IMG/VR virus record: IMGVR_UViG_3300031760_000017
Direction: 5' to 3' (one strand)
DNA length: 64,000 bases
DNA from: a virus
Part shown: positions 1 through 29,945 of the stretch, in pieces
Position numbering within the stretch: position 1 is the stretch's first letter
How the letters are laid out: each line of letters opens with the position of its first letter
Notes under the pieces: generated by a model
What the model saw: the letters and a program-made list of their open reading frames with translations, nothing else
Told to the model about the DNA's origin: nothing
The model's database searches: none
Translations under genes and position numbers: made by a program

Positions 1-252
1 GAGAAAAAAAGAATTGCTAATTCAAAAGTTAGGTCAACTCTGAAAAAATTAGACCATAATTTTTCTTCACATGGTGCATATAAAAAAATGTATGGACAAT
101 GGGAGATTTGTGATTGGTATTTCTTAGAATCTTGGAAAGAATATTGGGAATGTGAGAAAAGAGCATATAAAAGATTTCCTGAAGTTTATAAAAAACCTTT
201 AAATAAAAAAGAAGCTTATAGAGCTTGGTATAAAGACTATAAAATGAAATAA
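1..252 (+). CDS. hypothetical protein, C-terminal fragment (gene starts upstream of window)
   Basis: Frame 1 is open from base 1 to TAA at 250-252 (...AYRAWYKDYKMK*). No motif recognised. Confidence 0.4.
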   Translation, partial: EKKRIANSKVRSTLKKLDHNFSSHGAYKKMYGQWEICDWYFLESWKEYWECEKRAYKRFPEVYKKPLNKKEAYRAWYKDYKMK

Positions 253-262
253 AATATATATA

Positions 263-388
263 AAGGCATATACAGCAAATTCTCTTTAAGAGATGTGTTG
301 GTTCAAATCCAACATTTGCCGCATGGGCAGATTGGCGCAATGGTTGACGCAAGTGACTCGTAATCACTCTATCTTATTAATATGCCTT
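263..388 (+). ncRNA. circularly permuted tRNA-like RNA (T-arm and 3' acceptor strand lie upstream of 5' acceptor strand, D-arm and anticodon-like arm); Y-RNA/YrlA-like mimic or permuted tRNA-Thr(CGU)
   Basis: Terminal stem AAGGCATAT (263-271) / ATATGCCTT (380-388). T-arm GTTGG-TTCAAAT-CCAAC (297-313). ATTTGCC (314-320) pairs with GGCAGAT (326-332). Then come U8, a D-arm GCGC/AATGGTTGA/CGC containing GG, and an arm AGTGA-CTCGTAA-TCACT (352-368). Hand-folded. Confidence 0.5.
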
Positions 389-395
389 GTTTTAA

Positions 396-467
396 TGGGG
401 TGTCGCCAAGCGGTAAGGCATAGCACTTTGACTGCTACACACGTTGGTTCGATCCCAACCACCCCAG
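396..467 (+). tRNA. tRNA-Gln (anticodon UUG)
   Basis: Acceptor TGGGGTG/CACCCCA. D-arm GCCA-AGCGGTA-AGGC. Anticodon arm TAGCA-CTTTGAC-TGCTA. T-arm GTTGG-TTCGATC-CCAAC. 72 nt, hand-folded. Confidence 0.85.
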
Positions 468-489
468 CTAAAATTGAATGTAGTATAAT

Positions 490-945
490 GTGAATATAGA
501 CGGCGTGTGCGTGCCTAAGCTCTAAAATCGTCGTGAGGAGCCCTCATGGTAACTGCTTCTATAGCTGAAGGTGCCTACTACATCTATTACAATAAGGTCT
601 AGTCAGCCTGTACACAATGGTGAAATGATATATCCGTGTACCGTACTAAAACGTATTAGGTATTGTAATGGCGTTATGGTTCTACCAATACGTTAAATTG
701 GGGAAATGCAAATGGAACTATTTATTATTAGTTGATTCGTTTAACTTAATAAAATCAATCTTTTTTAAGCAATAGTGCATTATTGCTAATGAACGAATCG
801 TGTATAAAAAAGATTGGATTTTAGAACGATTATATGTTGATTGTTTATTAGAAGATGAGGTGCGGAAGCGGGGGCAACGCAGTACCCATAAATGAATGTC
901 TCGGCGTTGAGTAGTCAACTATTAAACAATAAATGTAGAAATCGT
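490..945 (+). ncRNA. long structured non-coding region of unknown class (ribozyme/intron-like or other large ncRNA)
   Basis: No plausible ORF with or without TAG=Gln. G+C is visibly higher than the flanks. Helices include GTACAC (610-615) / GTGTAC (636-641), AACGTATTaGGTA (650-662) / TACCAATACGTT (683-694), GATTCGTT/AACGAATC and AGCAATA/TATTGCT. A crossing pair AAAATCAATCTTTTTT / AAAAAAGATTgGATTTT gives pseudoknot topology. Confidence 0.3.
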
Positions 946-948
946 TTC

Positions 949-1020
949 GCGGGTATCGTATATCGGTTAGTATATTAGCCTTCCAAGCTAAGGGGGTGGG
1001 TTCGATTCCCATTACCCGCT
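949..1020 (+). tRNA. tRNA-Gly (anticodon UCC)
   Basis: Acceptor GCGGGTA/TACCCGC. D-arm GTAT-ATCGGTTA-GTAT. Anticodon arm TTAGC-CTTCCAA-GCTAA. T-arm GTGGG-TTCGATT-CCCAT. 72 nt. Confidence 0.85.
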
Positions 1021-1049
1021 TAACTCACAAAAGTGAGTAAAGATAAAAA

Positions 1050-1156
1050 TGTGCGGTGGTGGAATAAGTAGACACAGACTATATGAAAAGCGAGGTAGCA
1101 TCTGACTCACACAAATTCTCGCGGAGTCATGTGAGGTGTAAATCCTCACCCGCACA
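1050..1156 (+). ncRNA. 107-nt tRNA-like RNA: acceptor, class-II-like D-arm and T-arm, with a 54-nt insert in place of a normal anticodon arm
   Basis: Acceptor TGTGCGG/CCGCACA (7 bp) and U8. D-arm GTG-GAATAAGTAGA-CAC resembles tRNA-Leu. T-arm GTGAGG-TGTAAAT-CCTCAC has a non-canonical loop. In the insert, GCGAG/CTCGC and GACTC/GAGTC interleave, which predicts a pseudoknot. Confidence 0.35.
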
Positions 1157-1162
1157 TTCTTT

Positions 1163-1236
1163 ATACTTGTAGCTCAGACGGAGAGAGCATCGTCCTTCTA
1201 AGTCGAAAGTCGAGGGTTCGAGTCCCCCCAAGTATA
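1163..1236 (+). tRNA. tRNA-Arg (anticodon UCU)
   Basis: Acceptor ATACTTG/CAAGTAT. D-arm GCTC-AGACGGAGA-GAGC. Anticodon arm TCGTC-CTTCTAA-GTCGA (one U-U mismatch). T-arm GAGGG-TTCGAGT-CCCCC. 74 nt. Confidence 0.8.
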
Positions 1237-1239
1237 TAA

Positions 1240-1314
1240 TAGACATATACAGCAAATTTTTTCAAGAATAAGAAATAGACTTTTAATCTATAATTCTAAC
1301 TCAAAGTATGTCTA
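1240..1314 (+). ncRNA. small structured RNA, paralog of the terminal stem and 5' motif of the 263-388 element
   Basis: Stem TAGACATAT (1240-1248) / GTATGTCTA (1306-1314). It shares CATATACAGCAAATT with 267-281. Two stem positions differ from the first element by compensatory changes. An internal hairpin AGAAATAGA-CTTTTAA-TCTAT(AA)TTCT is present. No D-arm or T-arm, so it is not a tRNA. Confidence 0.35.
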
Positions 1315-1323
1315 GTTTTAATT

Positions 1324-1395
1324 GAGCCAATAGCCAAAGGGTTAAGGCAGAGGGCCGCAACCCCTCGATTATAAGTTCAAATCTTATTTGGCTCT
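1324..1395 (+). tRNA. tRNA with anticodon GCA (Cys), unusual C at position 33
   Basis: Acceptor GAGCCAA/TTGGCTC. D-arm GCCA-AAGGGTTA-AGGC. Anticodon arm GAGGG-CCGCAAC-CCCTC. T-arm ATAAG-TTCAAAT-CTTAT. Confidence 0.7.
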
Positions 1396-1397
1396 TA

Positions 1398-1426
1398 TTG
1401 ATTTTTTATAAAATTTTTAGTATAAT
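1398..1426 (+). promoter_or_regulatory. sigma70-type promoter (TTGATT-N17-TATAAT)
   Basis: -35 at 1398-1403 and -10 at 1421-1426, with exact 17-nt spacing. Same architecture as more than 15 other sites in the window. Confidence 0.6.
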
Positions 1427-1490
1427 ATATACATAAGGTTATGAAAATAACCTCAAACAAAGTTTGAAAAGAGATAAAAGGAGAACAATT

Positions 1491-3014
1491 ATGAATACTT
1501 TTCTTAATCAGATGGTAAGAGACAATAACATTACTCGTACAGAGAACGGTGGTGTAACTCGCAAGACAACAGAATCTAAGGTGCTTGATATGTTTGCGGT
1601 TGGCGGTGCTTATAGAAACCGTTCTGATGCAGATGTTATTCTTCTATTTAAGAACGCATTTGAGGAAAACCGTGAACTTGCTATGAAGTGTCTTTTCTAT
1701 CTTCGTGATGTTCGTGGTGGACAGGGTGAAAGACGTTTCTTCAGAACAGCTTTCCGCTGGCTTTGCGATAAGCATCCAGAAGTAGCAAAGAGAAATCTTA
1801 ATAATGTAAGTGAGTATGGTCGATGGGATGATCTTATTTATGTAGCTGAAGACACTAAGTGCCAGACTGCCGCATTTAATATCATTAAGCATCAGCTTGC
1901 TCTTGATGTTCAGTGCAAGACTCCATCTCTGCTTGCTAAGTGGCTGCCTTCTCAGAATGCTTCTAATAAAGATACTAAGCGTCTTGGTCATGTGCTTGCA
2001 AATTATCTTCATATGACAAACAAGGAATATCGTAAGACTCTTTCAGTACTGCGTGAGCGCATCAACGTTCTTGAACGCCTGATGAGTGCAAACCGTTGGG
2101 ATGAAATCGAGTTTGATAAGATTCCTTCAAGAGCTGGTATTATTTATCGTAATGCATTTGCTCGTCGCGACATTCTTGCCAAGAGATATGAAGCATTTGC
2201 TAAGAGTTCAGAAACCAAGGTAAATGCAGAAGCTCTGTACCCGCATGATATTGCACATAGAGCTTTTGATTATGGAATGAAGCGAGCTGACATTAATGCT
2301 CCTGAGCGTCTCATGCTTCAGAAGTATTGGGATAACCTTAAGGATTTCTATAATGGAAGAGAAGAGAATGGCATTGCGGTAGTTGATGTTTCTGGTTCTA
2401 TGAGTGGTATTCCTATGGAAGCCGCAGTTTCTATGGGAGCCTATATCGCAGATAAGGCTCACGGACCATTTGCTAATCACTTTATTACTTTCTCAGCTAA
2501 CCCTGAGCTAGTAAGATTTGAAGGTGTTGACATTGTTGATAAGTTCAATCGTTGTGTAAAGGCAAATTGGGGTATGAATACTAACGTTGCGGCGGTATTT
2601 GATATGCTTCTAAATACAGCTAAGAAGAAGCATGTAAAGGTTGAAGATATGCCTACTCGAATTTATATCTTCTCAGATATGGAATTTGATAAGTGCATGA
2701 CTCTTGATCCTAATTACCATGATGAATGGGGTTGGGGTTGGCATTCATGCAAGCATCCTTCTTCAACTAAGGAAGTAAATTCTGACCTTGAGAAGATCAA
2801 GAGAAAGTGGAGTGCTGCTGGTTATCAGATGCCTTCTGTAATCTTCTGGAATCTCAACGCTAGAAATAATCGTATTCCTGCTATCGGCGATGGTTTCAGT
2901 TATGTGAGTGGATTCTCTCCTTCCATGATTGATTCTATCCTTAGCGGTAAGGACGGTTATGACCTCATGCTTGATAAGCTCATGTCTAAGCGTTATGCGG
3001 CGGTTGTTGCATAA
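1491..3014 (+). CDS. Ro60-like protein: helical DUF2828/TROVE-like N-terminal region plus C-terminal vWA domain
   Basis: ATG at 1491 follows AAAGGAG; the track's 1464 start is an upstream TTG. N-terminal TENGGV...LDMFAVGGAYR. vWA MIDAS motif VVDVSGSM (DxSxS). FSDMEFD and C-terminal GFSPSMIDSIL parallel Ro60/Rsr features as I recall them. TAG-free and G+C-richer than neighbours. Confidence 0.55.
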   Translation: MNTFLNQMVRDNNITRTENGGVTRKTTESKVLDMFAVGGAYRNRSDADVILLFKNAFEENRELAMKCLFYLRDVRGGQGERRFFRTAFRWLCDKHPEVAKRNLNNVSEYGRWDDLIYVAEDTKCQTAAFNIIKHQLALDVQCKTPSLLAKWLPSQNASNKDTKRLGHVLANYLHMTNKEYRKTLSVLRERINVLERLMSANRWDEIEFDKIPSRAGIIYRNAFARRDILAKRYEAFAKSSETKVNAEALYPHDIAHRAFDYGMKRADINAPERLMLQKYWDNLKDFYNGREENGIAVVDVSGSMSGIPMEAAVSMGAYIADKAHGPFANHFITFSANPELVRFEGVDIVDKFNRCVKANWGMNTNVAAVFDMLLNTAKKKHVKVEDMPTRIYIFSDMEFDKCMTLDPNYHDEWGWGWHSCKHPSSTKEVNSDLEKIKRKWSAAGYQMPSVIFWNLNARNNRIPAIGDGFSYVSGFSPSMIDSILSGKDGYDLMLDKLMSKRYAAVVA

Positions 3015-3026
3015 CTTCTATATATA

Positions 3027-3059
3027 AGGCACGCAGAAATGCGTGCCTTTCTTTTTTTT
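3027..3059 (+). terminator. intrinsic terminator
   Basis: Hairpin AAGGCACGC-agaaat-GCGTGCCTT followed by a T-run. Confidence 0.75.
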
Positions 3060-3101
3060 ATATAAAGAAAAAATCTTAGAACCTGGTTAAATGGTTTTTT
3101 A

Positions 3102-3170
3102 AATGGCTCGGCACGCAGACACTCGTATCTCAGAAACGAAAAGCTGGTTTGGATTTTTTATTTTGCATTT
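3102..3170 (+). repeat. conserved ~68-nt element, copy A (second copy at 60203-60270)
   Basis: AATGGCTCGGCACGCAGACACTCGTA...TTTGGATTTTTTATTTTGCATTT aligns with copy B. There are scattered substitutions and one 1-nt indel. Confidence 0.6.
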
Positions 3171-3261
3171 CTTGGGCAGGAATAAATAAATTAATTTTTC
3201 TAATTTTAATATATAATTAGTGAAAAAATAATTTTTAGCAGGAGGAGCATTATAAAAAACT

Positions 3262-3747
3262 ATGGCAGTATTATTAGAACATTATTCTTTATCTGAAATT
3301 TTTATGTTTACTGTCCTTTTAGCTTTAGCTATAAAAAGTTTAGTATCTTTTTTTGATTGGGCCTATACTTATCTTAAAAAATTCTTTAACAAAGAATATA
3401 AAGAGACTGATGAAAAAAAGGACTTAGAAAAAAGATTACAACATGGCAGCTGGGTTATGACAACTTTACAAACAAATCAAGATATAACTGATCAATATTT
3501 AAAAGAGCTATCTGCAAAGATAGATATGTTAATAGATTCAGATAAAGATGCTATAAAATCTTACATAACAAGCAAGCATCATTACTTTTGTTATTAGGTT
3601 GGATGGATTGATGATTTTAGTTTAGATTGTTTAGAAAAACGTTATTTGCATTATGCAAAAGAAGGAGGAAACTCTTTTATTGAAGGTTTTATGAATGATT
3701 TAAGAAATTTACCAAAAAAACCGCCAACAAATAGTGATAAACATTAA
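3262..3747 (+). CDS. hypothetical membrane protein (N-terminal TM helix), 161 aa with TAG=Gln
   Basis: GGAGGAG RBS. Track ORF 3262-3597 continues in frame through TAG (3598-3600) to TAA at 3745-3747. Confidence 0.55.
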
Positions 3748-3778
3748 AAAATAAAAAGAGATAAAAGGAGTGTTATAA

Positions 3779-5752
3779 GTGGCTTATTTATCAGGTTTAT
3801 ATCCCCCAGTTATTCCAGATGGGTATCCAGCAATGTTACAATAGGGGGAAACAATAGATTCTAAAAAATATTATAAAATATATTTCTCAATACCCAAATT
3901 AAATTCAATTAATAGCATAGATTTAAGATTTATGCAAATATCAATTAGAAAACAATCTACAAATATTTCTGTTTTAGATAAAACTAAATATTTTTCTGAA
4001 ATATTATTAACAGAAGGTTTTTTAGATAATACTAAATCATCAAATGATTATAATTATTATATATTAGTTCCATTAACTGTTTTTGAAAATAATAAGCTTA
4101 ATATAAATTAGTTATATAAAATTCAATTAAGATTTTGTGCAAAAAATTCTAGTATTCAAGAACCAACTTCTTATAGCGGTTCTGCGCTCTCTGTTTGGTT
4201 AAATACATATAATAATAGATTTTCATAGTGGTCAAGAGTTAGCTTGATAAAAGTAATATCAAAACCTACTTTAAATATAAATGGATTAAATGCTGCTTCT
4301 AACTCTCGAATTACTACATCTTTATTTGAAGTTATTGGCTTATTAAGTTTTACTAATTCATCTGAAAGTGAAATTCTAAAAAGTTATCAAATATTTTTAA
4401 AAGATGCTAGTAAAAAAATAATTTTACATCAATCTGATATTATTTATTCAAATAATCTTAATAATCCTAATTAGATTAATTATGCTATTCCATATGAAAT
4501 GTCAGATAGATTAAATTATTATATTACTATACATTATACTACTAATAATCTATATGAAAATACTGTTAATTATCAAATTAATACATATTTTACAAACACT
4601 ACTATAAATCCTCTAAATGTATTTTCTGCAATAGGGAATGAAGAAGATGGATATATAAAACTTACTATAAAAAGCAAGGGCGTTAATTTATATTCTAACA
4701 ATAATATAAAACCATTAGAATTAATTATTAAAAGATCTTCTTCAAAAACTAATTTTACTATATGGGAAGATTGGAAGATTTTTTCTTATACTGAAAAGTA
4801 TATAGATAAATAGTTTTATGATATGACAATAGAAAGCGGAATTTGGTACAAATATGGCTTGCAAATGCGCGGGACTGATTCAAATGGGCGTATAGTAAGA
4901 ACTAATATGCAGTCAATGAACAAACCTGCAATGTGTATTTTTGACAATATGTATTTAACAACAAAAGATAAACAACTAAAAATAAAATTTAACCCCGCAA
5001 TTAGCCAATTAAAATATAATGTATTAGAATCTCAACAAAATACTTTAGGAAGTCAATTTCCATATATTACTAGAAATGGAAATAATTATTATAGAACTTT
5101 TTCTATTGGCGGAATTATATCTGCTTTATCTGAAATTTTACATGAAGATAACTTATATATTTAGACAAGTTTTGAAACTAAAAACTATTGGGAAAAACCT
5201 TATTCTGTTGCGGGAGTTCTTAATAAAAAAGATATGTGGGGCGCTCCTTAGGAAGATATAGATTATAAGAAAAATGGTAATTCTGCAATTATCTTAGAAG
5301 GAGATCTTAATCAAAATACTGAATCAATTTTTGATAGTGTAGGTTTAAATGAGGATGATAATTTAATTCATAATACATAGATTGCGGCAAGCAATAATAC
5401 TTAGATGTTTTCTACAAAAAATAAAAGATTATTTGCTACAGATTCAGAAATTTATAATTAGCAATAGGAATTATATGAAGAATATAATTCAGAACATGGT
5501 ATAAATAAATATCAAGATTTTATTTATGAAAGAGAATTTAGAAAATTAGTTTTTGATTTTTTAAATTCAAATGAAATTAAATTATTCCGTTCAACACAAG
5601 AAGGTAATATCTTAATCAGATTAATTGGAATAAATTTTGAACCAGTTGAAGGAACAAATAGATTAGTTTATTCATTTTCCGCAACCGCAGTTGAAATAGG
5701 GGAAGATACTATTAGTAATTATAAAAAATATAATATTTTAAAGGAGGATTAA
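3779..5752 (+). CDS. tail/baseplate structural protein, 657 aa with TAG=Gln
   Basis: GTG start 8 nt after AAAGGAG. Track ORFs 4244, 4499 and 4823 share its frame. Hand translation shows only TAG interruptions and ends at TAA 5750-5752. Confidence 0.6.
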
Positions 5753-5755
5753 TAT

Positions 5756-7672
5756 ATGAAACATAATTTTCCATATTTACAAGATTCCTCTTTTTTAAAA
5801 TAGTTTGATTAGTTACAATTAAAAGAAAAATTCGTTAAAATTATTGTTTTAAATTTTAAAGAATAGCCAATAGCAGAAATACAAGGGCGTGTAACTGGCG
5901 GCAGTATAAATGTAGATGGATCTTCTAGTATGCGGCGAACCGCAAATCTGTCTGCTATTGTTAAATAGTAGGATTATAATATTTTAGATGTAAGAAATTT
6001 ATTATCAATTAATAAGAAAATAGAAATATTAATTGGCTTTACAAATTTAACTAATAAATATTCTGACTTTCCAATTATTTGGTTCCCTGAGGGAGTATAT
6101 TTAATTTTTTCGCCAAATATTACTCAAAGTGAGACTGGAATTAATATCTCTTTAACTTTAAGGGATAAAATGACGTTATTGAATGGAGAATGCGGCGGTT
6201 CATTTCCCGCATCAGTTACTTTTCATTAGATTGAAGATATTGATGAAAATGGAAATGTAATTATTTCTAATCCAACTATATATCAAATTATTGTTGAATT
6301 AGTAAATCATTTTGGTGAAATCCCGCTGGATAAAATTATTATAAGTGATGTTGACACTAGAATTAAACAAACAGTTCAATGGATTGGTTCTTACCCAGTT
6401 TATTTTGCTAAACATAATAATGAGTTACAAGGTTAGTTTTCTACTAATTATTTTTAGCTCAGACAAACTTTTTCAGATAATGAAATCAAAACATATAATT
6501 ATGGAGATGCTGTTGGATATGTATTAACCGATTTTATTTATCCTGGTGAATTAATAGGAAATGCTGGAGAAAATGTTGTTACTATTTTAGATAAAATAAA
6601 AAATTTACTTGGTAATTTTGAATATTTTTTTGATACAGAAGGTAATTTTCATTTTCAAGAAGTTAAAAATTATCTAAATACAACTTATCCTACAACTTTA
6701 GAAAAAGATCGAGGAAATTTAGATAATTATCTAGTAGACTATGTTGATGGCGCATCTGTATATAGTTTTGAAGATAACAAAATTATTTCATCTATTTCAG
6801 TAGCCCCTTCTTATGAACAAATTAAAAATGATTTTATTGTGTGGGGTAAAAGAACTGAATTAACTGGTGCGGAAGTTCCAATAAGGTATCATTTAGCTAT
6901 TGATAAATGTCCACGAAACAATATATTGCATCAAGGTTTTTATGAATATGTTGATCCATAGGATGATTTAACTAAATATACAAAAAAAGTAATTACTGGA
7001 CAAAACTCAATTAATATTACTTCAAGAGATTATAGAACTGAATTATATTTACAAGGAGTTGAATCTGAAAATACAGCTACCGCAAGTAATTATTATTTTA
7101 TTGAATTAAAGAATTAGTGGCCGAAAATTTATAATATAAAATAGGGAACTTTTTTAGAAGAGTCTTTTGATAATTTAGATTATTTTTTAGATATTATAGA
7201 TACTTCCGCATAGATAGGAAAATTTAGTGTTTAGAATATTGGAAGACGGACAGTAGTTATAAACGATGATTCTATTAATTGTATTTTTGAACCATAGTAT
7301 CCAGAAGTTGTTTTTATAAAAACAGTGGATCAAGATGATCAAGAGTCAAATCCTATAAGAATTGAATGTGAAAATAAAAAAATAGATTATACACAGATAA
7401 AACCAGAAATGTTTAATTTTCTTTTTCAAGGAAATCCTTATAAGTCTGCCTATGAAGAAATAAGGACAGAATTATATCAATATACAACATATAATGAACA
7501 AATAAATTTATCTATTTTACCAATTTATTATTTTGAACCAAATACAAGAATTACTGTAAAGAACAATTAGATTGGGATAGGTGGAGATTATATGATTAAC
7601 AGTTTTTCAATACCTCTTGATATAAATGGCATAATGAATTTAACTTGTATAAAAACATTAGAAAGGATATAA
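5756..7672 (+). CDS. tail/baseplate structural protein, 638 aa with TAG=Gln
   Basis: ATG 5756 is preceded by AAGGAGG. It is in frame with track ORF 7325-7570. Contains QGRVTGGSINVDGSSSMRRTANLS, a phage minor-tail-like motif. Only TAG interrupts the frame, and TAA lies at 7670-7672. Confidence 0.6.
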
Positions 7673-7696
7673 GGTAAATGATTTTTCATTTACCTT
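7671..7696. terminator. bidirectional hairpin between convergent genes
   Basis: AAGGTAAATGA-tttt-TCATTTACCTT. It overlaps the stop codons of the plus-strand gene (7672) and the minus-strand integrase (7690). Confidence 0.55.
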
Positions 7697-8703
7697 ATAT
7701 ATTTTTGATGATCTTGTTTAACTTTTTCATTTGAAACATGTGCATAATGTAAAGTAGTTTCAAGCTAAGAATGTCCTAATACACTTTGAATAGATTCAAT
7801 TGGCATGCCTCTGTTTATCGCAGTTGTTGCCATAGTATATCTAAAACGATGTGGAATAATATCTTCAACACCGCTATTCTAAGTTAATTGATGCAATCTT
7901 TTTCTAACTCCTGAAGTACTTAATCTATTATAAGGGAATCTTAAAGACACAAAAAGAGCTTCATTATTATCTTTTCTTTCATTTATATAGTTTTTTATAC
8001 TAACTACAGTTTTTGCATCTATATAAACAGTTCTCCATTTTCCACCTTTTCCGCAAACAATAATTTCCCTCTTATTTAAATCAACATCTTTAATATTTAA
8101 ACCTACACATTCAGAAATTCTAATACCTGATGAAATTAGTAAATCTACAATAGCAATATCTCTATTTGTTTTACAAGCTCTTCTTATCTATTCTATATCT
8201 ATATCAGTGTACTATTGCCTTGGTTTTACATTAGACTTCTATCTTCTTATTCTTACTGAAGGATCTTTCTAAATATACTCTTCTTCATATAGCCATTTAA
8301 AAAAAGATCGTATAATACTTTTTCTTTGATTTAATGTTTCAGTACTTAATGGTTTACCAGTTTTTTTATTTTTAGATATATATTGAATATATAAACGAAG
8401 ATGATTAACAGTTATTTTTTCTAAAGGTAAACTTAAATAGTTTAACATATCCTATAAACACATTTTATATTGTTCTTTACTTTTTTCTGACATTCTACCC
8501 TATTGCTCTTTTGCCGCCATATAAATATAATAAGCTTCTGGTAATTGATAATTTTCATCTTTTAAATCTACAAAATTTGGTGTGATATTATAATTAAGAG
8601 AATAAGTATTTAATATATTTTTAATTTTATCTATATCCTATCTTTTAAAAAACGGCTATATTTTTAAACAAAATCCTTCAACAAAAGATAAGTTTGAAGA
8701 CAT
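7690..8703 (-). CDS. tyrosine recombinase/integrase (XerC/D-like), 337 aa with TAG=Gln
   Basis: Hand translation gives ...SSGIRISE..., HRFRYTMATT, LGHS-TAG-LETTLHYAHV (catalytic R, HxxR, H and Y). About 10 in-frame TAGs, with no TAA/TGA until 7692-7690. Confidence 0.8.
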
Positions 8704-8734
8704 TAATTAATTCTCCTTTTTTTTAATATTAAAA

Positions 8735-8770
8735 AAAGGAGGACTATATTTAAATATATAGTCCTCCTTT
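8735..8770 (-). terminator. 15-bp perfect hairpin after the tail-fibre operon
   Basis: AAAGGAGGACTATAT-ttaaat-ATATAGTCCTCCTTT, flanked by A/T runs. Confidence 0.6.
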
Positions 8771-8912
8771 ACTCTTTATTTAATTTTATTTTAATTCCAT
8801 AAATAGATAACTTAAATAAAATACTATTTTATTTTTTATTTATTCACTATAATTTCATATCTTCTGTGCTTAATTAAAGTTTTTATTTAAGATCTCTAAA
8901 TGGGCGTTTAGT

Positions 8913-10181
8913 TTACTCACCTAAGATTGTGCCATCGACATACTCAAGACGTTTTACAACAAAATCACGTATCTGCAAAATGTTGTTGTCCGTCTTTCCG
9001 GGGATCGTAATAAAAGCCCCGTCTGCTGTTGTCTCTGCATAATCCTCGGCATAAAGATATGGCGGAATCTGGCTTATGAACTTGTCGAACTCTCCGAGAA
9101 TATTTCCGGCAGAAAGTACGGTTTCTCTAAGTTCCTGATACCTTGCTATTACATCGCTCTGGAAAAGATTCCAAATACGATAATGCAGGTAGTTGTCCTC
9201 TTGAAACTGCGTATATCCGTTATAATTCTCTTGGAAGATTGTGTTATAAGGACGCCATGTTACTTCTTCCTGTCGCACAAGTCCGGTCATTCCCCACGTA
9301 GAATCCAAATCGTACAAACCTGTGTACCACTGTTCTGCATCATACGTAAAAAATGTCTGATTCTTTGCGATCAGGTCAATGGCACATATAGCCCTTACGA
9401 ATATATGCATATCAATGAGCGATTGCAGGTCAATCTTTGAATCTATCCCGGCTATAAACTGCGCATCTGTTGAATTACATATAAACGCCAGTACGGAAGT
9501 CCAACTATCGGCAATGACTGTTGGCATTTCATCGTGAAGTTCATCAGACCATTTTCCATTCATTGTCGGCTGTCTGAAAAACATCGTGTTATCATCAGCA
9601 AGCCCATCTGTCTGAATAATGCAGTTTGTTTCCTCGTCAGAATCCACACCGTACATACCGTCTTTCGGTAAATTCCATGTATAAAGACCATAGTATACAC
9701 CGTTGTGGTAGACCTTGACCGGGAATCCATCAATCGCAAGATTGCTCTTTCTCAGCGTAGCAGGTAGGGATGCAAAATTACTCCTTGACCTGACTGCCTG
9801 TGACCAAAGACGGGCATTAACAATATTTCTTGCATGGCTGTGGTCTATCCAGTTTGCTTTAAGGACAAACTTATTTCTAGGTTTATCCCAATCTCTGAAA
9901 AGACGTTTGCTCTTTGATTTTCTTGCGCTGTCTGTAAAAAGATTTATCGTGTAATTTTTCTTTGGATAGTAGGCAGATGAATCTCCTTGTACTTTAGCTG
10001 TAGCGTAATCCGTGAATGATTCCGTTGCGCTCTTGTATGTTATCTTAATGTTGCTCTTGCCTTCTGTCTTTGTCGCATACAGTTCACCCTCGATGGACAC
10101 AACTGGAATATCACCGTCATTGGGTTCATATCCGCCTACGTTTACAATATTTCCATGATAATCATAAATATAAGCCATCAT
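8913..10181 (-). CDS. CotH-family (kinase-like) protein, probable tail-fibre or receptor-binding accessory
   Basis: Intact 422-aa ORF in the standard code. LKANWIDHSHARNIVNARLW and the following segments resemble CotH. G+C-richer and TAG-free. Confidence 0.6.
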   Translation of the reverse strand: MMAYIYDYHGNIVNVGGYEPNDGDIPVVSIEGELYATKTEGKSNIKITYKSATESFTDYATAKVQGDSSAYYPKKNYTINLFTDSARKSKSKRLFRDWDKPRNKFVLKANWIDHSHARNIVNARLWSQAVRSRSNFASLPATLRKSNLAIDGFPVKVYHNGVYYGLYTWNLPKDGMYGVDSDEETNCIIQTDGLADDNTMFFRQPTMNGKWSDELHDEMPTVIADSWTSVLAFICNSTDAQFIAGIDSKIDLQSLIDMHIFVRAICAIDLIAKNQTFFTYDAEQWYTGLYDLDSTWGMTGLVRQEEVTWRPYNTIFQENYNGYTQFQEDNYLHYRIWNLFQSDVIARYQELRETVLSAGNILGEFDKFISQIPPYLYAEDYAETTADGAFITIPGKTDNNILQIRDFVVKRLEYVDGTILGE

Positions 10182-10189
10182 ATCACCCC

Positions 10190-11014
10190 TTAAACAGTAA
10201 TATTCGTTCCGACAAGTTCATTGATTTCCTGATTGGATAATGCAACTTTATAGATTTTATAGAAATCTATTGTGCCTGACCACGGTTTAACTGTGCCACT
10301 TTCAACTATGCCAATCTTATAATTACCTACAGCGTCAGCGGTACTCGTTATAATGTCCTCTAAAGAGTAAACAAGGTCATCATCAACATAACTATGTATC
10401 AATAAGTGCTTTGAAAAGTTTCTTACTACGATAATTATATCGTGCGCAACATCCATACTAAAAGGTGTAGAGTTACCTCCAAGGTTTTTAAATGTTGTCC
10501 GTGTCATAATTTGTTCATTAGATACGGTTGTTGCAATTCTCAAGCCTGTAACGACACTTCCATTTAATCTGGATTTTGCGCTTGCGTCCAGTAGGAATGA
10601 AGCCTCAGTGGTAGGCTCCCACGTCCCCTTTATCAGGATCGTAAAATCCTCGTTATCCATATCATTTCTTGCAGGTACTCCGGTATCGACTGTAAATGCA
10701 CTCATATCTGTTCCATACGGCAACTCATAAATAACCCGGCTGTCTACACTCATGCTGAACAATGCATCTTTCAGGGCTTTGCCGTACTTCTCACCGTCCT
10801 CGGTATCCCAATATACATGCTCAAAACAGTCTATAAGGGCTGTCTTTACATTATCCGGCATAATGCTATATGCGGGAATTACAAGACCGTCTGAGCCGAT
10901 AGCAAGCACCCTCCCGGCATTTATAGCTCCCTGCTGTTTGTCAACTTTCTGACCATTTGAAATAGCTTCAATAAGTGCGTCAACCTTTGCACCTTCCCAA
11001 ATATTAACTGCCAT
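10190..11014 (-). CDS. LamG/concanavalin-like domain tail protein
   Basis: Intact 274-aa ORF. The C-terminal ...IDFYKIYKVALSNQEINEL is typical of Laminin_G_3-type domains. G+C-richer and TAG-free. Confidence 0.5.
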   Translation of the reverse strand: MAVNIWEGAKVDALIEAISNGQKVDKQQGAINAGRVLAIGSDGLVIPAYSIMPDNVKTALIDCFEHVYWDTEDGEKYGKALKDALFSMSVDSRVIYELPYGTDMSAFTVDTGVPARNDMDNEDFTILIKGTWEPTTEASFLLDASAKSRLNGSVVTGLRIATTVSNEQIMTRTTFKNLGGNSTPFSMDVAHDIIIVVRNFSKHLLIHSYVDDDLVYSLEDIITSTADAVGNYKIGIVESGTVKPWSGTIDFYKIYKVALSNQEINELVGTNITV

Positions 11015-12087
11015 TATACACCTCCGTTATATGTAACCGTTGTTTCGAGTGTTGTAAGATTGGTTACGATTGTCAGTGATTCTCCTGTGTTCAGCGTTCG
11101 GACTTCTGTTATTGTTCCAGTACCATAAGTAAAAGCGTCCGTTCTTATAGCTACCGAATTACGACTGTGAGTAACCTGAGAAACCTTCCCATCGGTGAAC
11201 GTATATGCCTGAGTTGTATCAGGAACATCATCACTAAGAAGCATTAACTTATGTGTTAAATCCCCGGTAGTGCTGACCCATGCATTCCATGTAGAAGTAA
11301 ATGCACTATATGTTCTAACCCATACTTCTATGCTTGTTCTTCCCGACTTGTAAGTATAGGTCAACCGCTGAAACGTCCTACCTACATTGTTTCCAAAAAC
11401 TTCATGCCAAACTTCCAAAATTCCATGCTCACTATCGGCAGTAGGTTTGTGAAGATATGAATTATCAGTGTGAAGCATATACACACCGGGAGTCAATACG
11501 GTATTCAAGTCCGTTCCGTCAGCAAGCCTTTGAGGTTCTGTTAATGCACCTAAATCAGCCTTTATTTCCGTAAACTCATCTCCAACAGCTTTCGCATCAG
11601 CTGCAGTTCCAGTTATAGAAAGCGTATCATCTACTTCAATTTGTTTAGCATCAATAGCAGCATTTACTTCGGCTTTCGTATAAGTATTTGATGCGTTTGC
11701 TTTCTTATTTAACTCTGTTTTAACTGCCAACGCATCTGCAGCGGCACCTTCAATAGTTAAAGTTTTATCAACAATAACCGCACTTCCTACAGGATTTACA
11801 TTATCATCTAACCAATCAGTAGTATCCGCACTAATTTGTTTTCTTAAAAAATCATTTAATCTTGAATTAAATTCATTAGTGCTAATTTTATCTCCATCCA
11901 ATTCATCAATCTGATGTTGGAGATTTCCTTTTCCAGAAGAAGAAATATCGACACTTCCTAAAGCATCTAATAAAGTATGATTATTTTCATCCCACTAAAC
12001 ATTTTGGACATTCACACTAATAGGAATTTCTCCAGTATAAGTGCCATTCTTTTGCTTTATTTTTATAGCCTTTATTTTATCAGCCAT
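11014..12087 (-). CDS. tail fibre protein (mosaic: AT-rich N-terminus with one TAG, G+C-richer TAG-free C-terminus)
   Basis: ATG 12087 follows AAGGAGG and is in frame with track ORF 11014-11901 (offset 186). TAG at 11997-11995 (NV-Q-WDENNH). Repeated G(A/T)AADA(L/K)AV fibre motifs. Confidence 0.7.
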
Positions 12088-12106
12088 AAAACTTCTTCCT
12101 CCTTTC

Positions 12107-12424
12107 TTAAACATAATTTTCTAATTTATTAAAAATTTTATTAGTCACATATATAATTTCATCTCTATAAGTTGAAATTAAATCCGCAACTAACTCCTAT
12201 TGTTCAATAGTAAGATTTACATTATAAGAAAACATTGCAGCATGTGTAATTTCATGACATAAAACTTTCCTTAATAGTTTACCAGTTAGCGTCTCATTTA
12301 TGTATATAGTTCTAGTCAAATTATCACATGCACCTATTGAAAAATCTCCAGACTTTCTTCTTAAAAGAGGAAAGTCTGGAGATACAAAAGCAAGTTTCCA
12401 ATATGTGTTATTTATTAAAAACAT
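12107..12424 (-). CDS. HExxH zinc-metalloprotease-like protein (ImmA/IrrE- or SprT-like)
   Basis: LCHEITHAAMF motif. Track ORF 12197-12424 continues through TAG to TAA at 12109-12107. Confidence 0.45.
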
Positions 12425-12449
12425 TAAGAAATTTTGTTTGCTAGCGTTG

Positions 12450-12611
12450 TCATTTTTTGACGTAAGGTTTATTACCCATATAATTATTATATGGGGTGTT
12501 GCTCAATAACATGTTATTGCTCCCATAAGGAAATTGTACTTGCGGTTGCCCCATCATTCCGCTCATAAGCTGAGGCTGTTGCAAATAGTTAGAATTATTG
12601 TAATTTGCCAT
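12450..12611 (-). CDS. small Q/N/P-rich protein (53 aa)
   Basis: GGAGG RBS, then MANYNNSNYLQQPQLMSGMMGQPQVQFPYG..., ending with TGA at 12452-12450. Confidence 0.4.
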   Translation of the reverse strand: MANYNNSNYLQQPQLMSGMMGQPQVQFPYGSNNMLLSNTPYNNYMGNKPYVKK

Positions 12612-12757
12612 TACTTTCCTCCAATCGAGATCTCTTTTTACTTTTTGAATTATTTAACAGTTACTAAATTTTCGCGAAAAAAGAAAGAGTTTTTTCTTTC
12701 CACATATATATAAAAATTTCTACTATTAAATTAATTACATTTGACCAAAAAATTGAG

Positions 12758-12786
12758 TTGACAAAAATAAAAATTTTTTGTATAAT
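12758..12786 (+). promoter_or_regulatory. sigma70-type promoter (TTGACA-N17-TATAAT)
   Basis: -35 at 12758-12763 and -10 at 12781-12786, with TG immediately upstream of the -10. Confidence 0.65.
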
Positions 12787-12810
12787 ACAGATAAGAAAGA
12801 GGTGTAATTT

Positions 12811-13299
12811 ATGAAAATATTATCATTAGATTTATCAACAAAATCTTCTGGTTGGTGTGTAGGAGAAGATGGAGTTATAAAATCTCACGGATGCATTACC
12901 GCATCATCAAAAGATGTGATTCAAAGAATTATAAAGATGCGGAGTTAGTTATCTGCAATTATATAGAAAAATAAAATAGATAAAATTGTTATGGAATAGG
13001 TACGACCTGACTTTAATTCACATACGAGTAAGGTATTAATGTGGCTTCAAGCAGCAATTGCAATTGCCGCACACTAGATTAATCCGAAGATTTAGTTTTA
13101 GTTCATCGGACCTAGTGAATGGCGTGCCGCATTAAAATTTAAGCAAGGTCGCGGAGTAAAAAGAGATAATTTAAAATCACAAGATATACAATATGTTAAA
13201 GATAAATATAGCACAGATGTAAATGATGACTAGGCAGACGCAATATGTCTTTTTGACGCTTATTCAGAAAAATTTGATAATGAAATAAATTGGGAATAA
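12811..13299 (+). CDS. RuvC-like Holliday-junction resolvase, 162 aa with TAG=Gln
   Basis: ILSLDLSTKSSGW, VME-TAG-VRP and DD-TAG-ADAICLFDAY match the RuvC acidic tetrad context. Seven in-frame TAGs. Ends at TAA 13297-13299. Confidence 0.7.
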
Positions 13300-13331
13300 A
13301 AAAGACTAATCTTATTCAAGATTAGTCTTTT
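13300..13331. terminator. bidirectional intrinsic terminator
   Basis: AAAAGACTAATCTT-attc-AAGATTAGTCTTTT lies between convergent genes. Confidence 0.7.
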
Positions 13332-13339
13332 TTATTTTA

Positions 13340-13576
13340 TTATTCTTCTTCTTTTTTATCCTATTCTTTTAAATCATCTAAAGGAATCTTATTAACCTTT
13401 CTAGATTTCATAGATTGAACAGTATAATCATTCTAAATCTTCTGTTTTTTTACTATTTTCCAAATCTATTGAAATAAAAAGAATTTAATTAAAAAAGGAA
13501 GCTATGATTTATTAAACTCCTAAATAATTTTCTATTGAAAATTATAACACATTAAATTATAATCATTTTCATTCAT
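13340..13576 (-). CDS. hypothetical protein, 78 aa with TAG=Gln
   Basis: AAGAGG RBS, then MNENDYNLMCYNF..., six in-frame TAGs, and TAA at 13342-13340. Confidence 0.4.
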
Positions 13577-13603
13577 TTTTAATACCTCTTATCTATAATT
13601 ATA

Positions 13604-16600
13604 TCAATCTATATAACCAACCCATCCTCTATACGGACTACCATATGAATGTCCATCATACCATCTTCCAAGAGCATAACCCCATTCAAAATAAAGAATC
13701 CGAGGAGAACTTGAATCATTTGGATCTGCATGCTCGATCCATATATCTGTAACAATCTGTCCCCAAGAAACTTTTTGATTATCATAAGTAAAATAATCAG
13801 CTTCTAATTCTTCAGTTGAAAGATAATCTGATCTAATTTGTGAAGCAGTCAAATAATCTGATCTAATTTGTGAAGCAGTTAGATAATTTGCATTAAGAGT
13901 TTGAGTAGAAACATAATTTGCTTTAACTTGATTAAATTCTGCTTTATCAGCATATAATGTATCACATTTTATAATCATCTTATCAGTCAAACTTCCAGAA
14001 TAATAACTGTTGGTCATATCACTAGCCATAACAGTATTAGGATCTAACCAAGAGTCACCTGAGCCTCCTATAGTAAAACCATATCCATTTAAGGACTGTC
14101 CACTCATAACCTATCCATAAATTTTCCCAAAATAAGCATCTCCATTTGCGCTAATAGACCAAGAAGGACCAGATATACTACCCTCATAATCAAGAGAAAG
14201 ATTACCAGCTTTTAAATCATAAGTATTAATATTCCATCCGCCTATCTGTCCGGAGCTTGCATTTATCTCGCCTGATAAATTTACATTAGATGCTGTTAGA
14301 TTACCATTATTATCAACAGAAAATCTAGAACCAAGAGCAATTTCATCAGTTCCAATATAAACGCTTCTATTATTTCCTTTTGTTCCAAAAGAAATTGAAC
14401 TTAAATTAGCTGTAAAATCTCCTTTAATAGTCCAATGATTTCCAGATAAATACCCCATTTCTAAAGTCGCAGGTTTTATTGTTCCATTATCTGAATATCT
14501 ATTAGTAAATCTAAAAGAATTTCCTAAAGATAAGCCAAGAGGAGATAAATGAAAACCATCAGCTGTATTAGTTAATTCTGTTTTATTTCCACTATAAATA
14601 CGACTACGATCAGCTTCTAAAGTAATTTTTTGACTATTTAAAGAATTACTTTCAGTACCAATTAATTTAGTACCATTTATAGTCCAACCGCCAATTTGAC
14701 CAGATGTTGCGGTAATTTTCCCACTTAAATCTGTATTAGTAGCAACTAAATTTCCATTAGAATCTACTTTAAAACGTCCTGAACCATATCTTATTTCAGG
14801 TTTTGTTAAATCAATTAATAAACCTTGACCTTTTTCATTACTAGATGTATAATTAGATGGTAAGCCATTTTCATTATAATTTTTCCAAAAATTACCACTA
14901 TATAATAAAGCATGACTAGTACTTGGATCTATTACAATTTGCCCATTGTTAGCTTTTCCAAATAACGCAGAACCATTTTCACTATTTAAAAAGAAAGTTC
15001 TATCACCTTTATTATATCCTAATAATCCAATGTCAGGAGCAGTCTTATCTGGATTTTTAACTTCACCCATTAAAACTCCAGTAAAACTATTATCATTTTC
15101 TTTTTTACCTGCGCCCATTTGCGGAGCTAAGATATAACCACCCTTATCATCTAATTGAATACTGTTGCCATCCCAAGCGTTAATATGAGCTAATCCATAT
15201 TTATTTAATAAGAAATGAATAGGAATATGAATTCTAGCAATAACCTAATTATTATTAACACTTTTAACAGTACATACTAAAGCATTATTAACACACTAGC
15301 CGCTATACCTTGAAGCTGGTCGACATATGCATTGATTCTTTTGTAAATTTTTAGTATAATAACTCTAAGTTAATAACTCTAAATCATGAGAATCGTTATT
15401 ATAAGGAAACTAATCATACTAACCTACTTCAATCTAATGTGTCTGTATTATATTTATAACATCACCATTAACTGAATAACTAAAATTAACTGCATGACTT
15501 CCAGAAACTAATGATATATCTTCCCATTTATTATTTATTTTTTCTTTAATAATAAATTCAAAAGGTTTAGAATTGTCATATTGAGGAGATAAACCATCAG
15601 AACTATACATGACATATCTAAATCCAGTATAATCTTTTAATTCAATTCTATAATTATCATTTTTAACCCATGCAGTTGCAATAGGCAATGTACTATAATA
15701 TGAGTGCTGATTATAAGTTATTGTGCATTTTAGAATATCTGCTAATGTTTGCGTAAAAGTAGTGTCTATTGGATGTGCTGTTGTATTCACATATGAAATA
15801 AGTCCAGTATTAGCATTTACAATATTAAAAGAACTTTCATCAGTAAAATTTGTTTTATAAAAATTCTTTAACATGTTCCAAGTTACAGAACTAGGACTAG
15901 TTACACCATCTTTTGGATTTGCGGCAGTTGAAGTTCCTTCCCAAATCAAATCTCCACTTTGCCATAGCTGAGCTTTAAATAAGGTTTTTCCAACATTAAA
16001 TCCTGCAGTTTGCTACTATCCAGTTCCGCTTGCCGCAAAATTAATAATATAAGAATTAGAATCTCCTATTGCTGTTAAAGTAGGGTAAATAGGTAATATT
16101 TTTGCTGTACTATTTGGAACAATTTTCACAATATATTGGGTCCCATTTGTACCAGGTTCTCCCTATTTTACAAAAGTAAAGTTAGTTTTTGCAACTAAAT
16201 TAATCTACTTATAAGTTACAAATAATTCAATCTGATTATTTAATTTTTTTACATCATATTTTTGTGCAATATCATAAACTAAAGTATCTAAATTTGAATA
16301 ATATCTATAACCTTCCTATTCAACTGCCCATGTTTTATTGTTTTTGTCAACTAATAAAGTATTTTCAATAGGAATTTTCCAAGTAACTTGTCTTTTCTTT
16401 ATATCATCAGTAATATCATTCCCTAAATTATCATATACCTTAAAAGTTAAAGCTAAAATCTATTGCGGATCATCTAAACTTTTACTATTAGGCGCAATAC
16501 CATTCTAATTATATTTATATGATGCAGAGCCATTTTCAATAATTAGTGAATATATATTTTCCGCCTATAAAGAATTACTTAAAGTAATTGAAGCTGTTCC

Positions 16601-28210: not shown

Positions 28211-28276
28211 TTAAAATTATTTATATAAGCACATTGAAAACTAAATATTATATTTTATTAAAAAAGGAGAAAAAAG

Positions 28277-29851: not shown

Positions 29852-29861
29852 TAATTTATGA

Positions 29862-29913
29862 CAAGGAGAATATAAAAATTCTCCTTGTTTTTTTTATAAA
29901 TTTTTATTATAAT
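29862..29913 (+). promoter_or_regulatory. fused terminator-promoter cassette
   Basis: Hairpin CAAGGAGAAT-ataaaa-ATTCTCCTTG. Its terminal TTG starts the -35 TTGTTT (29885-29890). The T-run forms the 17-nt spacer. TATAAT at 29908-29913. Confidence 0.65.
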
Positions 29914-29945
29914 ATATTTATAAAAATGAAAAGGAAATAAAAAAT

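Follow-up and report, generated by a model that had tools for sequence, protein, structure and literature searches.

A heavily recoded, Xer-like recombinase and a pair of short sites bordering the exchangeable fibre cassette of an uncultured phage

What is an integrase-like gene full of amber codons doing among the tail genes of a phage? The gene that raises this question lies on the minus strand at 7690..8703 of a 64,000-nucleotide stretch of the IMG/VR virus record IMGVR_UViG_3300031760_000017 (the window, meaning that whole stretch), and it encodes a Xer-like tyrosine recombinase of 337 amino acids, recognizable by Pfam and PHROGs matches, with ten in-frame TAG codons and a TAA stop. A first-pass annotation had offered three possible roles, namely a conventional integrase, an inversion switch for host-range genes, and a remnant of the acquisition of the neighbouring fibre cassette. 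Comparison with related loci favours another answer, to which we lean, if only slightly: the recombinase would act on two types of short site, here called L and R, that border this cassette and, in genomes with a single cassette, would mediate its exchange with genomes that carry matching sites.

The first step is to establish that the gene is alive. Judged from its reading frames, recoding of TAG extends over the entire window. When TAG is translated, a single open reading frame (ORF) of 2883 amino acids with 71 TAGs encodes the tape-measure protein, another of 1563 amino acids with 26 encodes the main tail protein, and 14 TAGs occur in the lysin gene; TAG is absent from most replication genes (GyrA, GyrB, ligase, DnaB, RecD-like). 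The "about ten" TAGs of the first-pass annotation are exactly ten in the reverse-strand translation, at codons 16, 22, 68, 84, 145, 155, 164, 172, 275 and 313, and their density of 2.97 per 100 codons ranks second in the window, RuvC alone being higher. The same translation contains no internal TAA or TGA, and a base-composition estimate puts the chance of 337 codons without either at ~1e-11, given that ~7% of random codons would be TAA or TGA at ~25% GC. The ten TAGs align with variable E/D/Q columns of standard-code homologues, and none falls on the residues that are invariant in a 40-member family alignment (R195, K219/K222, H285, R288, H311 and Y320). The Gln-type codons of the gene are CAA 10, CAG 0 and TAG 10, and the amino acid for which TAG is read is probably Gln. 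The frame is open in four recoded lineages (the window, L006/L007, L008 and L009, with 10, 10, 6 and 8 TAGs, respectively), and pairwise dN/dS among the window, L006, L008 and L009 is 0.06-0.18. The lack of TAA and TGA, the intact catalytic residues, and the low dN/dS in four lineages argue that TAG is sense here and that the gene is functional, intact, and under purifying selection.

It is hardly credible, then, that the ORF is the decaying remnant of a dead integrase and its TAGs real stops. The standard code does split the gene into 11 pieces, as a pseudogene would have it; this reading was rejected, because the frame is otherwise open at 25% GC, the TAGs keep to E/D/Q columns, and dN/dS is low, and it is further opposed by the intact catalytic residues and by a TAG density like that of the structural genes. 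The earlier statement that the protein can be made only with active amber decoding holds, since ten TAGs block standard-code translation and the gene is recoded as heavily as structural genes. Likewise, such a gene is indeed unusual for a lysogeny integrase, as had been claimed: the integrases of temperate TAG-recoded phages avoid in-frame TAG (bioRxiv 10.1101/2021.08.26.457843), the opposite of what is seen here.

The protein itself is compact. Pfam recognizes Phage_integrase (PF00589, 2.8e-37) and an N-terminal SAM-like core-binding domain, PHROGs supplies the label integrase, and Pfam detects neither an arm-binding domain nor the catalytic domain of serine recombinases (resolvases). The NCBIfam model XerA_Arch scores 215.2 bits against a cutoff of 220, followed by XerC (174 against 335), XerD (151 against 330), and XerS (114 against 267); integron-integrase models score far below their cutoffs (TIGR02249, 77 bits against 265; NF011946, 45 against 435). 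The nearest solved structures in the PDB are XerC-like, XerD, and XerA proteins. By domain content and score, the recombinase is a simple Xer-type enzyme that falls below the XerC/XerD/XerA family cutoffs. It is the only tyrosine recombinase in the window. Close recoded relatives at 96, 82 and 79% identity were found in a large protein database, along with many further homologues at ~45-67% identity, and the examined loci of the latter are those of standard-code phages with 32-53% GC. Among 50,697 phage records, megablast of window positions 3000-14000 returned no match, and tblastn of the recombinase returned none above 39% identity, bar a partial 50% match on a short contig. A search for related loci with the 1563-amino acid tail protein found nothing, and one with the baseplate protein found a single distant relative, L005, with no recombinase match in the 20 kb examined.

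The clue to function lies beside the gene. Site R (AACTAAACGCCCATTTAG; 8896..8913, minus strand) overlaps the last base of the stop codon of a CotH-domain gene and forms the right junction of the cassette. Specifically, identity between the window and L006 is 95% over 3417-8913, and the homology stops exactly at this stop codon, that is, at R. Beyond R, L006 has a different, NAGPA-domain gene (likewise GC-rich and TAG-free), L008 a partial ORF of at least 849 amino acids, and L009 a GDSL/SGNH esterase; the sequence at the break point, AACTAAACG(CC/GG)CATTTAG, is common to all four genomes. In the wider family, an exact or one-mismatch R is located 100-770 nt upstream of the recombinase in ~20 of 32 IMG/VR loci, and the same placement is seen in 19 of 27 metagenome loci. 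The genomes that carry R span 28% to 53% GC, and their intergenic DNA on either side of it is otherwise unalignable. R starts almost always 0-8 nt past a stop codon, with a terminator or the next gene's ribosome-binding site often following. Of 33 IMG/VR contigs with an exact R, ~22 could be evaluated for downstream sequence, and in 12 of these a tyrosine recombinase gene starts 100-950 nt downstream on the same strand. The conserved site adjoining the recombinase has 5-7-bp arms. No second copy of R was found in the window with up to three mismatches or with the loose pattern CTAAA-N6-TTTAG, and a look-alike at 4897 was dismissed, having more than three mismatches.

Several minor observations concern R. 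Two forms exist, CTAAAC-GCCC-ATTTAG and CTAAAC-GGGC-ATTTAG, in which the central 4 bp are exact reverse complements of each other and the slightly asymmetric arms are unchanged, and a variant in L002 and L117 (CTAAACACCTGTTTAG) is a perfect palindrome. In L003 (9208-9332), a half copy of R (AATAAACTAAACGCC) and a full copy stand in direct orientation around a 29-codon hydrophobic mini-ORF, which resembles a tiny cassette in site-cassette-site format.

The cassette that ends at R occupies 8914..11548 (minus strand), has a GC content of ~0.41, and lacks TAG. It consists of the C-terminal domain of a fibre protein (11014-11548), a 274-amino acid protein (10190-11014), and the CotH-domain protein (8913-10181), all on the minus strand. 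Its other border is site L (ATAAAGGCTGATTTAGG; 11549..11565, minus strand), which lies in the fibre ORF and encodes I-K-A-D-L-G. The constant N-terminal part of the fibre follows at 11566..12087 (minus strand; one TAG), starts with the ATG at 12087 (MADKIK..., as in P0129-P0136), and retains 94-97% identity in relatives with other cassettes. Two kinds of comparison place the left junction at L. At the protein level, fibres P0129-P0132 are 88-97% identical to that of the window over the N-terminal half, up to ...TE(I/V)KADL, and unrelated beyond it; conversely, P0126 has an unrelated N-terminus and a C-terminus nearly identical to that of the window from LKADLG|ALTEPQ onwards (~5 differences by eye in ~179 residues). 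At the DNA level, homology of the window cassette to the standard-code phage L195 begins at window position 11569 (GAAATAAAGGCTGATTTAG), upstream of which the two fibre genes are unrelated. A left border at the GC shift near 11830, with a degenerate site at 11859, had been considered and was rejected, as the protein and DNA comparisons put the junction at 11549-11565. A scan with the fibre C-terminus returned partial relatives only, L195 and L196.

The sharpest case comes from four standard-code phages (L017, L033, L034 and L020) that are 94-96% identical to one another and carry four unrelated cassettes of 1.4-3.8 kb, two of them clearly GC-richer than the backbone. Their sequences part right after CTA(AA/TC)GGCTGATTTAG and rejoin exactly at AACTAAACGCCC, with 131 nt left to the recombinase start. 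In these phages, as in the window's own clade, contig comparison shows that unrelated cassettes replace one another exactly at L and R.

L and R are also related to each other. Both consist of 16 bp with common 5-bp inverted arms, CTAAA-N6-TTTAG, and their spacers form fixed pairs: the L spacer GGCTGA (or GACTGA) goes with the R spacer CGCCCA, and TGG(A/T)TC goes with CGGGCA. This co-variation holds in all 16 loci, four of which (L003, L010, L022 and L031) were found only after the rule had been formulated. The spacer types cut across the recombinase phylogeny; for example, the recombinase of the window is 79-82% identical to those of L008 and L009, and the loci are of different types. Within the fibre gene, L employs CTA and TTA for Leu, even though the former is the least-used Leu codon in the majority of these genomes; the joint expectation of the two is 0.3-3% per lineage. 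Read in the corresponding pseudo-frame, R gives L-N-(A/G)-H-L and L gives L-(K/N)-(A/G)-(D/S)-L, and on the strength of this likeness R looks like a retained copy of L at the cassette end, giving the layout site-cassette-site.

With both junctions in hand, the lysogeny question can be addressed. Homologues at 52-66% identity in standard-code temperate phages are located between the last tail-fibre gene and the holin/lysin genes, and the loci L001, L003, L010/L011, and L013 have the order fibre gene, site R, recombinase, lysis genes, and a second integrase on the opposite strand, the place of R in L013 being taken by a diverged, R-like sequence. A separate canonical integrase is thus present in all four of these annotated loci. 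In L003, for example, a GDSL-esterase fibre is followed by the recombinase, a holin, an endolysin, and then a 369-amino acid integrase on the opposite strand; in L010/L011, the order is metallophosphatase fibre protein, recombinase, holin, CHAP lysin, several genes, integrase, and HTH repressor. The fibre-locus position holds in the window and in all family loci examined, and the window gene has baseplate and fibre genes for neighbours, with no repressor or excisionase among them. From its genomic address, the recombinase most likely belongs to the tail-fibre (host-range) locus and not to a lysogeny module.

If the gene were a conventional lysogeny integrase after all, R would be the core of attP, the variable cassette would be attP-adjacent cargo, and integration would put the recombinase at one end of the prophage and the fibre cassette at the other. 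The integrase labels from Pfam and PHROGs agree with this, a conserved core beside the integrase gene is typical of attP, and variable genes often adjoin attP. The chance that it is right nevertheless seems small. Ten TAGs run counter to the TAG avoidance of integrases in temperate recoded phages, a canonical integrase stands alongside in the four annotated loci (and a repressor-type HTH gene also in L010), no arm-binding domain was detected, repressor and excisionase neighbours are missing, and the visible 64 kb, which encode gyrase, ligase, DnaB, and primase, look like part of a large phage that has replication genes of its own. Nor does R behave like a bacterial attachment site. The exact motif occurs only 53 times in 596 Gb of bacterial sequence, no more than a rough chance estimate would give, and the hits are scattered over unrelated phyla with no taxon enriched and never beside a recombinase homologue; because its bacterial hits are so rare and scattered, R is not a conserved host attB, although an attB with only a shorter common core would escape an exact scan. 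The first of the three proposed roles is therefore not supported, in view of the late fibre-to-lysis position, the second integrase in four of four annotated loci, the lack of R enrichment in bacteria, and the Xer-type protein.

Whether the locus could instead be an inversion switch is best judged from relatives that do look invertible. In L018 (IMG/VR), inverted repeats of 116 nt that match at 91% of positions (3736-3851 and 9691-9806) enclose two convergent gene sets, each made up of a fibre gene and a CotH gene. Its recombinase lies ~215 nt from the right repeat, the same spacing as that of R in many other GC-rich family loci. The outer edge of both repeats reads TTCC(C/T)TAAAGAGCAATTTAGG, and a CTAAA-N6-TTTAG site is found at the outer edge in L018 and in L121. 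The left copy of L018 has an ATG and a constant N-terminus of 20 amino acids, and the right copy is without a proper start. L121 has the same two-cassette architecture and 116-nt inverted repeats around a different interior; in L122 the recombinase-proximal site and repeat are present, and the contig ends before any distal partner. An L-type site stands inverted beside the recombinase in all three, with both copies visible in L018 and L121, and the segment that would flip measures 5.8-7.2 kb in phages of this type. The three loci have in common the repeats and a central 100 nt with inverted half-R motifs (AAACTAAACGCCC) at its borders, and this centre is 98% identical between L018 and L122, in opposite orientation. 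The invertible layout is seen in only three of ~60 family loci; most, the window included, have a single cassette. In window positions 1-14000, no significant inverted repeat was found around either gene block, the only matches, inverted or direct, being AT-rich chance ones, so the earlier statement that no obvious inverted-repeat crossover sites exist is correct for that interval. The window has only one cassette, and its L and R point the same way and differ in their spacers; this cassette therefore cannot flip. The idea of a host-range switch, which the first-pass annotation had called weak, is therefore weak for the window, where inverted repeats are lacking, yet stronger than had been thought for the family, given the repeats of L018 and L121 and the conserved sites L and R that bracket an exchangeable cassette. 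Yet another layout of the family is seen in L013, where two genes with a common 5' region of 280 nt, 68% identical (7036-7316 and 11065-11344), flank the recombinase; the upstream gene encodes 121 amino acids, ahead of a 646-amino acid pectinesterase-like protein, and the downstream gene 1247 amino acids.

These comparisons suggest the following course of events. The recombinase would be made at a low level and late, once amber decoding is active. Its substrates would be the 16-bp CTAAA-N6-TTTAG sites, L in the fibre ORF and R just past the final gene of the cassette, with ~190 nt between R and the recombinase; that the enzyme catalyses recombination there is an inference. In the window, its activity would be site-specific exchange of the cassette and not inversion, either by a double crossover (L x L plus R x R) or by way of an excised circle, with co-infecting phages or resident prophages that have matching sites as partners, standard-code phages among them. 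In two-cassette relatives such as L018 and L121, the same activity would produce inversion. Matching sites are in fact present in standard-code phages, and in one traced case (L195) the cassette homology begins at L. Exchange with standard-code phages would explain why the cassette is GC-rich and TAG-free, and exchange at matching sites would explain both the exact junctions and the co-variation of L and R. More generally, it is tempting to suggest that a Xer-like recombinase and a heterospecific pair of 16-bp sites form a natural cassette-exchange system for host-range modules that works across genetic codes, inverting where there are two cassettes and swapping where there is one; this broader proposal is offered tentatively. 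The phages concerned would make up a widespread family and, to judge only by the names of the metagenomes and metagenome-assembled genomes, seem to come from the rumen or gut.

A number of observations weigh against cassette exchange by this enzyme. The window has one cassette, one R, and no inverted partner. Among the assembled contigs compared, no inverted isomer, excised circle, or hybrid site was seen, and all support comes from contig comparison. With arms of only 5 bp and differing spacers, L and R are short for the core site of a tyrosine recombinase. Because the four near-identical phages with unrelated cassettes belong to a single clade, the junction events that count as independent are modest in number. 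A junction at the conserved KADLG peptide could reflect selection for functional chimeras after homologous recombination. Since about half of the evaluable contigs with R (~10 of 22, e.g., L195) have no adjacent recombinase, R could be an element of the fibre operon in its own right. Finally, a clean deletion has removed ~1 kb of the recombinase from L113/L114, a relative with 95% identity whose contig measures 131 kb; L113 retains L, R, the leader, the terminator, and the first ~27 nt of the recombinase, and it carries a different cassette. The deletion implies that the recombinase is dispensable and that exchange could act in trans or by other means. It also bears on the third of the roles first proposed, a remnant of the cassette's acquisition: an exchangeable cassette and a dispensable recombinase agree with that role, but a gene under purifying selection is not a relic.

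Two further explanations draw on the same facts. In one, the enzyme would be a resolvase or cyclase with a single site, in the manner of Cre/loxP or Xer/dif. It would act at R only, beside its own gene, in the resolution of multimers of the replicated genome or the circularization of newly entered DNA, and the L/R junctions would arise from homologous or illegitimate recombination plus selection; R would seem a hot spot only because co-infecting genomes of any kind recombine at this place. This suits a protein that is closest to Xer-type enzymes (XerA_Arch 215 bits, XerC 174, XerD 151, and XerC-like, XerD, and XerA structures), a single R per genome directly upstream of the gene, as loxP is with cre, a neighbouring RuvC resolvase that is also heavily recoded (7 TAGs), and the dispensability seen in L113. 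It leaves unexplained the related site L at the other border of the cassette, the 16/16 spacer co-variation, the double-cassette loci with inverted repeats and an L-type proximal site, and the presence of R in phages without an adjacent recombinase; moreover, the constant address of the family is the fibre locus and not a replication or partition module. A resolvase acting at R alone is thus considered unlikely, though it is the main rival to cassette exchange. In the other explanation, the recombinase has nothing to do with L and R and is an accessory or selfish gene that came by chance to reside at the end of the fibre operon, L being only a conserved fibre peptide motif and R an RNA or transcription element of that operon. 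R without a recombinase in nearly half of the evaluable contigs, loss of the gene by simple deletion in L113, and the position of R just after stop codons, often ahead of a terminator or ribosome-binding site, would all follow. Such independence is rather improbable in light of the common arms and co-varying spacers of L and R, the DNA-level codon constraint at L, the architecture of L018 and L121, which is that of a classic invertase locus, and the same-strand recombinase within 1 kb of 12 of the 22 R sites; in addition, no Rfam family matches R at E <= 1, and the predicted fold of the local region does not pair R into a hairpin of its own.

Cassette exchange as favoured here has several partial precedents. 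Searches of the literature turned up no description of this recombinase family or of sites L and R. The closest precedent, by layout and description rather than sequence, comes from Bifidobacterium prophages: their Rin shufflon, according to its description the first invertase of the tyrosine family to be encoded by a phage, varies the C-terminus of a receptor-binding protein at 11-bp rix sites (PMC6109161). In both, a phage tyrosine recombinase without an arm-binding domain is encoded directly beside a receptor-binding-protein locus with a constant N-terminal part, variable C-terminal parts, and short sites at the border, and the L018 site (TTCCCTAAAG...) has TTCCCTAA in common with the rix site TTCCCTAACCC. 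However, Rin has several variable segments whose inversion isomers are seen in reads, whereas the window has one cassette with direct sites and no inverted repeat. The variable unit is also larger here, 1.4-3.8 kb and multi-gene (a fibre C-terminus plus CotH, NAGPA, GDSL esterase, or metallophosphatase); it varies by replacement from one genome to the next, not by shuffling inside a single genome; a second, non-coding site follows it; the host lineage is different; and the window gene is TAG-recoded.

The two-cassette loci recall the G segment of Mu (Gin), the C segment of P1 (Cin), and Min of p15B, which likewise combine a constant 5' part of a fibre gene, inverted repeats, convergent alternatives, and an adjacent recombinase; the left and right copies of L018 correspond to the Sc/Sv arrangement of the Mu G segment. 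In contrast, Gin, Cin, and Min are serine invertases with gix/cix sites and a Fis-bound enhancer, and the present loci have a tyrosine recombinase and mostly a single cassette. In the R64 shufflon (Rci), compared by layout, the gene for a tyrosine recombinase likewise directly follows the variable 3' ends of an adhesin gene (pilV), and its sfx sites resemble L in lying in coding sequence at the constant/variable junction with one well-conserved arm and a spacer; R64, however, is a plasmid whose pilus adhesin is varied at multiple inverted sfx sites, and the window has no such array. Integrons likewise keep a recombinase beside the position at which promoter-less, compositionally foreign cassettes are swapped, and attC resembles R as a short, imperfectly palindromic site directly after the stop codon of a cassette. 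Here, unlike in integrons, the cassettes stand upstream of the recombinase and point the same way, an ORF contains the left site, which creates a protein fusion, the sites have 16 bp and not the 57-141 bp of folded attC, and the integron-integrase score is 77 against a cutoff of 265. Laboratory cassette exchange with Cre and heterospecific lox sites follows a similar logic: common arms and different spacers flank a replaceable segment, a layout that allows exchange and disfavours deletion, but that system is engineered, and its natural phage equivalent is hypothetical here. Finally, XerC, XerD, and XerA give the best sequence matches and have the same domain layout (SAM-like core-binding plus catalytic domain, no arm-binding domain); the recombinase differs in its scores under the cutoffs, its phage fibre locus, an extra N-terminal region of ~60 amino acids, and the absence of a dif-like 11+6+11 site.

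If exchange at L and R is real, an apparent exception to the way in which recoding separates lysogeny from lytic genes would disappear, the "integrase" being an enzyme of a late host-range locus. Control of receptor-binding proteins by tyrosine recombinases would then reach beyond Bifidobacterium prophages into a large group of uncultured phages, with a new mode, the exchange of multi-gene cassettes at two defined 16-bp joints. These joints would mark the exact borders of host-range modules in metagenomic phages, predict which phages trade receptors (two compatibility types have been seen), and suggest a ready docking site for host-range engineering. The sharing of cassettes between standard-code and recoded phages also suggests, without showing it, that the two meet in the same host cells.

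The setting of the gene agrees with tight control. The earlier placement of the recombinase at the convergence of plus-strand baseplate genes and a minus-strand block, directly downstream of a compositionally foreign fibre cassette, was borne out: recoded baseplate/tail genes of 161, 657 and 638 amino acids (1, 11 and 15 TAGs; 3262..7672, plus strand) converge on it, and the genes at 8913-12114 have a GC content of 0.37-0.41 and are almost TAG-free. A bidirectional intrinsic terminator at 7667..7700 is common to the converging baseplate gene and the recombinase. On the other side, a strong intrinsic terminator (8735..8770, minus strand), with a 15-bp stem and then a run of T, lies ~30 nt upstream of the recombinase start, and the hairpin is kept as a structure in L006, L008, L009, and L113. 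The ribosome-binding site is a GGAG at ~8713-8716, and no promoter-like site was found on the same strand upstream of the window gene. Expression probably depends on read-through from the fibre operon. A terminator ahead of the gene and ten TAGs within it suggest that expression from this late operon is low and further gated by the amber codons, giving a low-level product only with active amber decoding, and such tight, low expression fits a DNA-rearranging enzyme.

Regulation appears to take another form in GC-rich relatives, where the recombinase has a conserved, structured 5' leader of ~130 nt (L001:9850-10000, L003:9425-9572, L010:9855-10005, and 12 other loci). The leader folds into two hairpins with compensatory changes at 9 of 14 predicted pairs, its 3' hairpin appears to cover the Shine-Dalgarno sequence of the recombinase, and promoter-like -35/-10 elements lie upstream of it in a by-eye reading of the alignment. 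It has no Rfam match at E <= 1 and may be a new cis-regulatory RNA. In the recoded clade, a plain terminator hairpin takes its place.

Other rearrangements are seen around the fibre gene. Its N-terminal region (window 11731-11566) has two copies of a GAAADA(K/L)AV... unit, and L113 (10344-10399) is without the ~56-amino acid stretch between them, apparently by repeat recombination; with this loss, site L in L113 comes after the first unit and is degenerate (GTAAGGACTGATTTAA). Directly upstream of the fibre gene lies a small gene of 105 amino acids with a metalloprotease motif (HEITH; weak M78/SprT matches; 12107..12424, minus strand), which is conserved in L113. Between RuvC and this M78-like gene, L113 has an extra 2.4 kb with ~5 small genes (7208-9619), missing from the window at 12465-12468, which makes this interval a second indel hot spot beside the fibre locus.

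The remaining observations concern recoding and composition elsewhere in the window. The only tRNA genes of the window form a cluster at 396-1395 (Gln-TTG, Gly-TCC, Arg-TCT and Cys-GCA) in a stretch of raised GC content, and no suppressor tRNA with a CTA anticodon was found in the 64 kb. The apparatus for amber decoding must accordingly be encoded in the remainder of the 107-kb contig or be supplied from another source. A DUF2828/DUF7788 gene (PHROG "RNA-binding protein"; 1464-3014, plus strand), with a GC content of 0.41 and no TAG, looks as foreign as the cassette, but its presence at the same place in L005 (71% amino acid identity) and L113 marks it as a stable resident and not a recent import. 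Several GIY-YIG/homing-endonuclease-like ORFs at 40059-43452 and 49147-51528, with 4-9 TAGs each, alternate with replication genes free of TAG in the gyrB-gyrA interval and in the surroundings of thyX, and recoding is therefore not confined to structural and lysis genes. Further genes with TAG are RuvC (12811-13299; 7 TAGs), a RecJ-like gene (58423-60204; 8 TAGs), and ThyX (4 TAGs). Finally, a block at 27464-35017 has 0-1 TAG per gene, and its products, labelled by eye, include metallophosphatase-like, SPFH/flotillin-like, possible major-vault-protein-like (829 amino acids), and RNA-ligase-like proteins.

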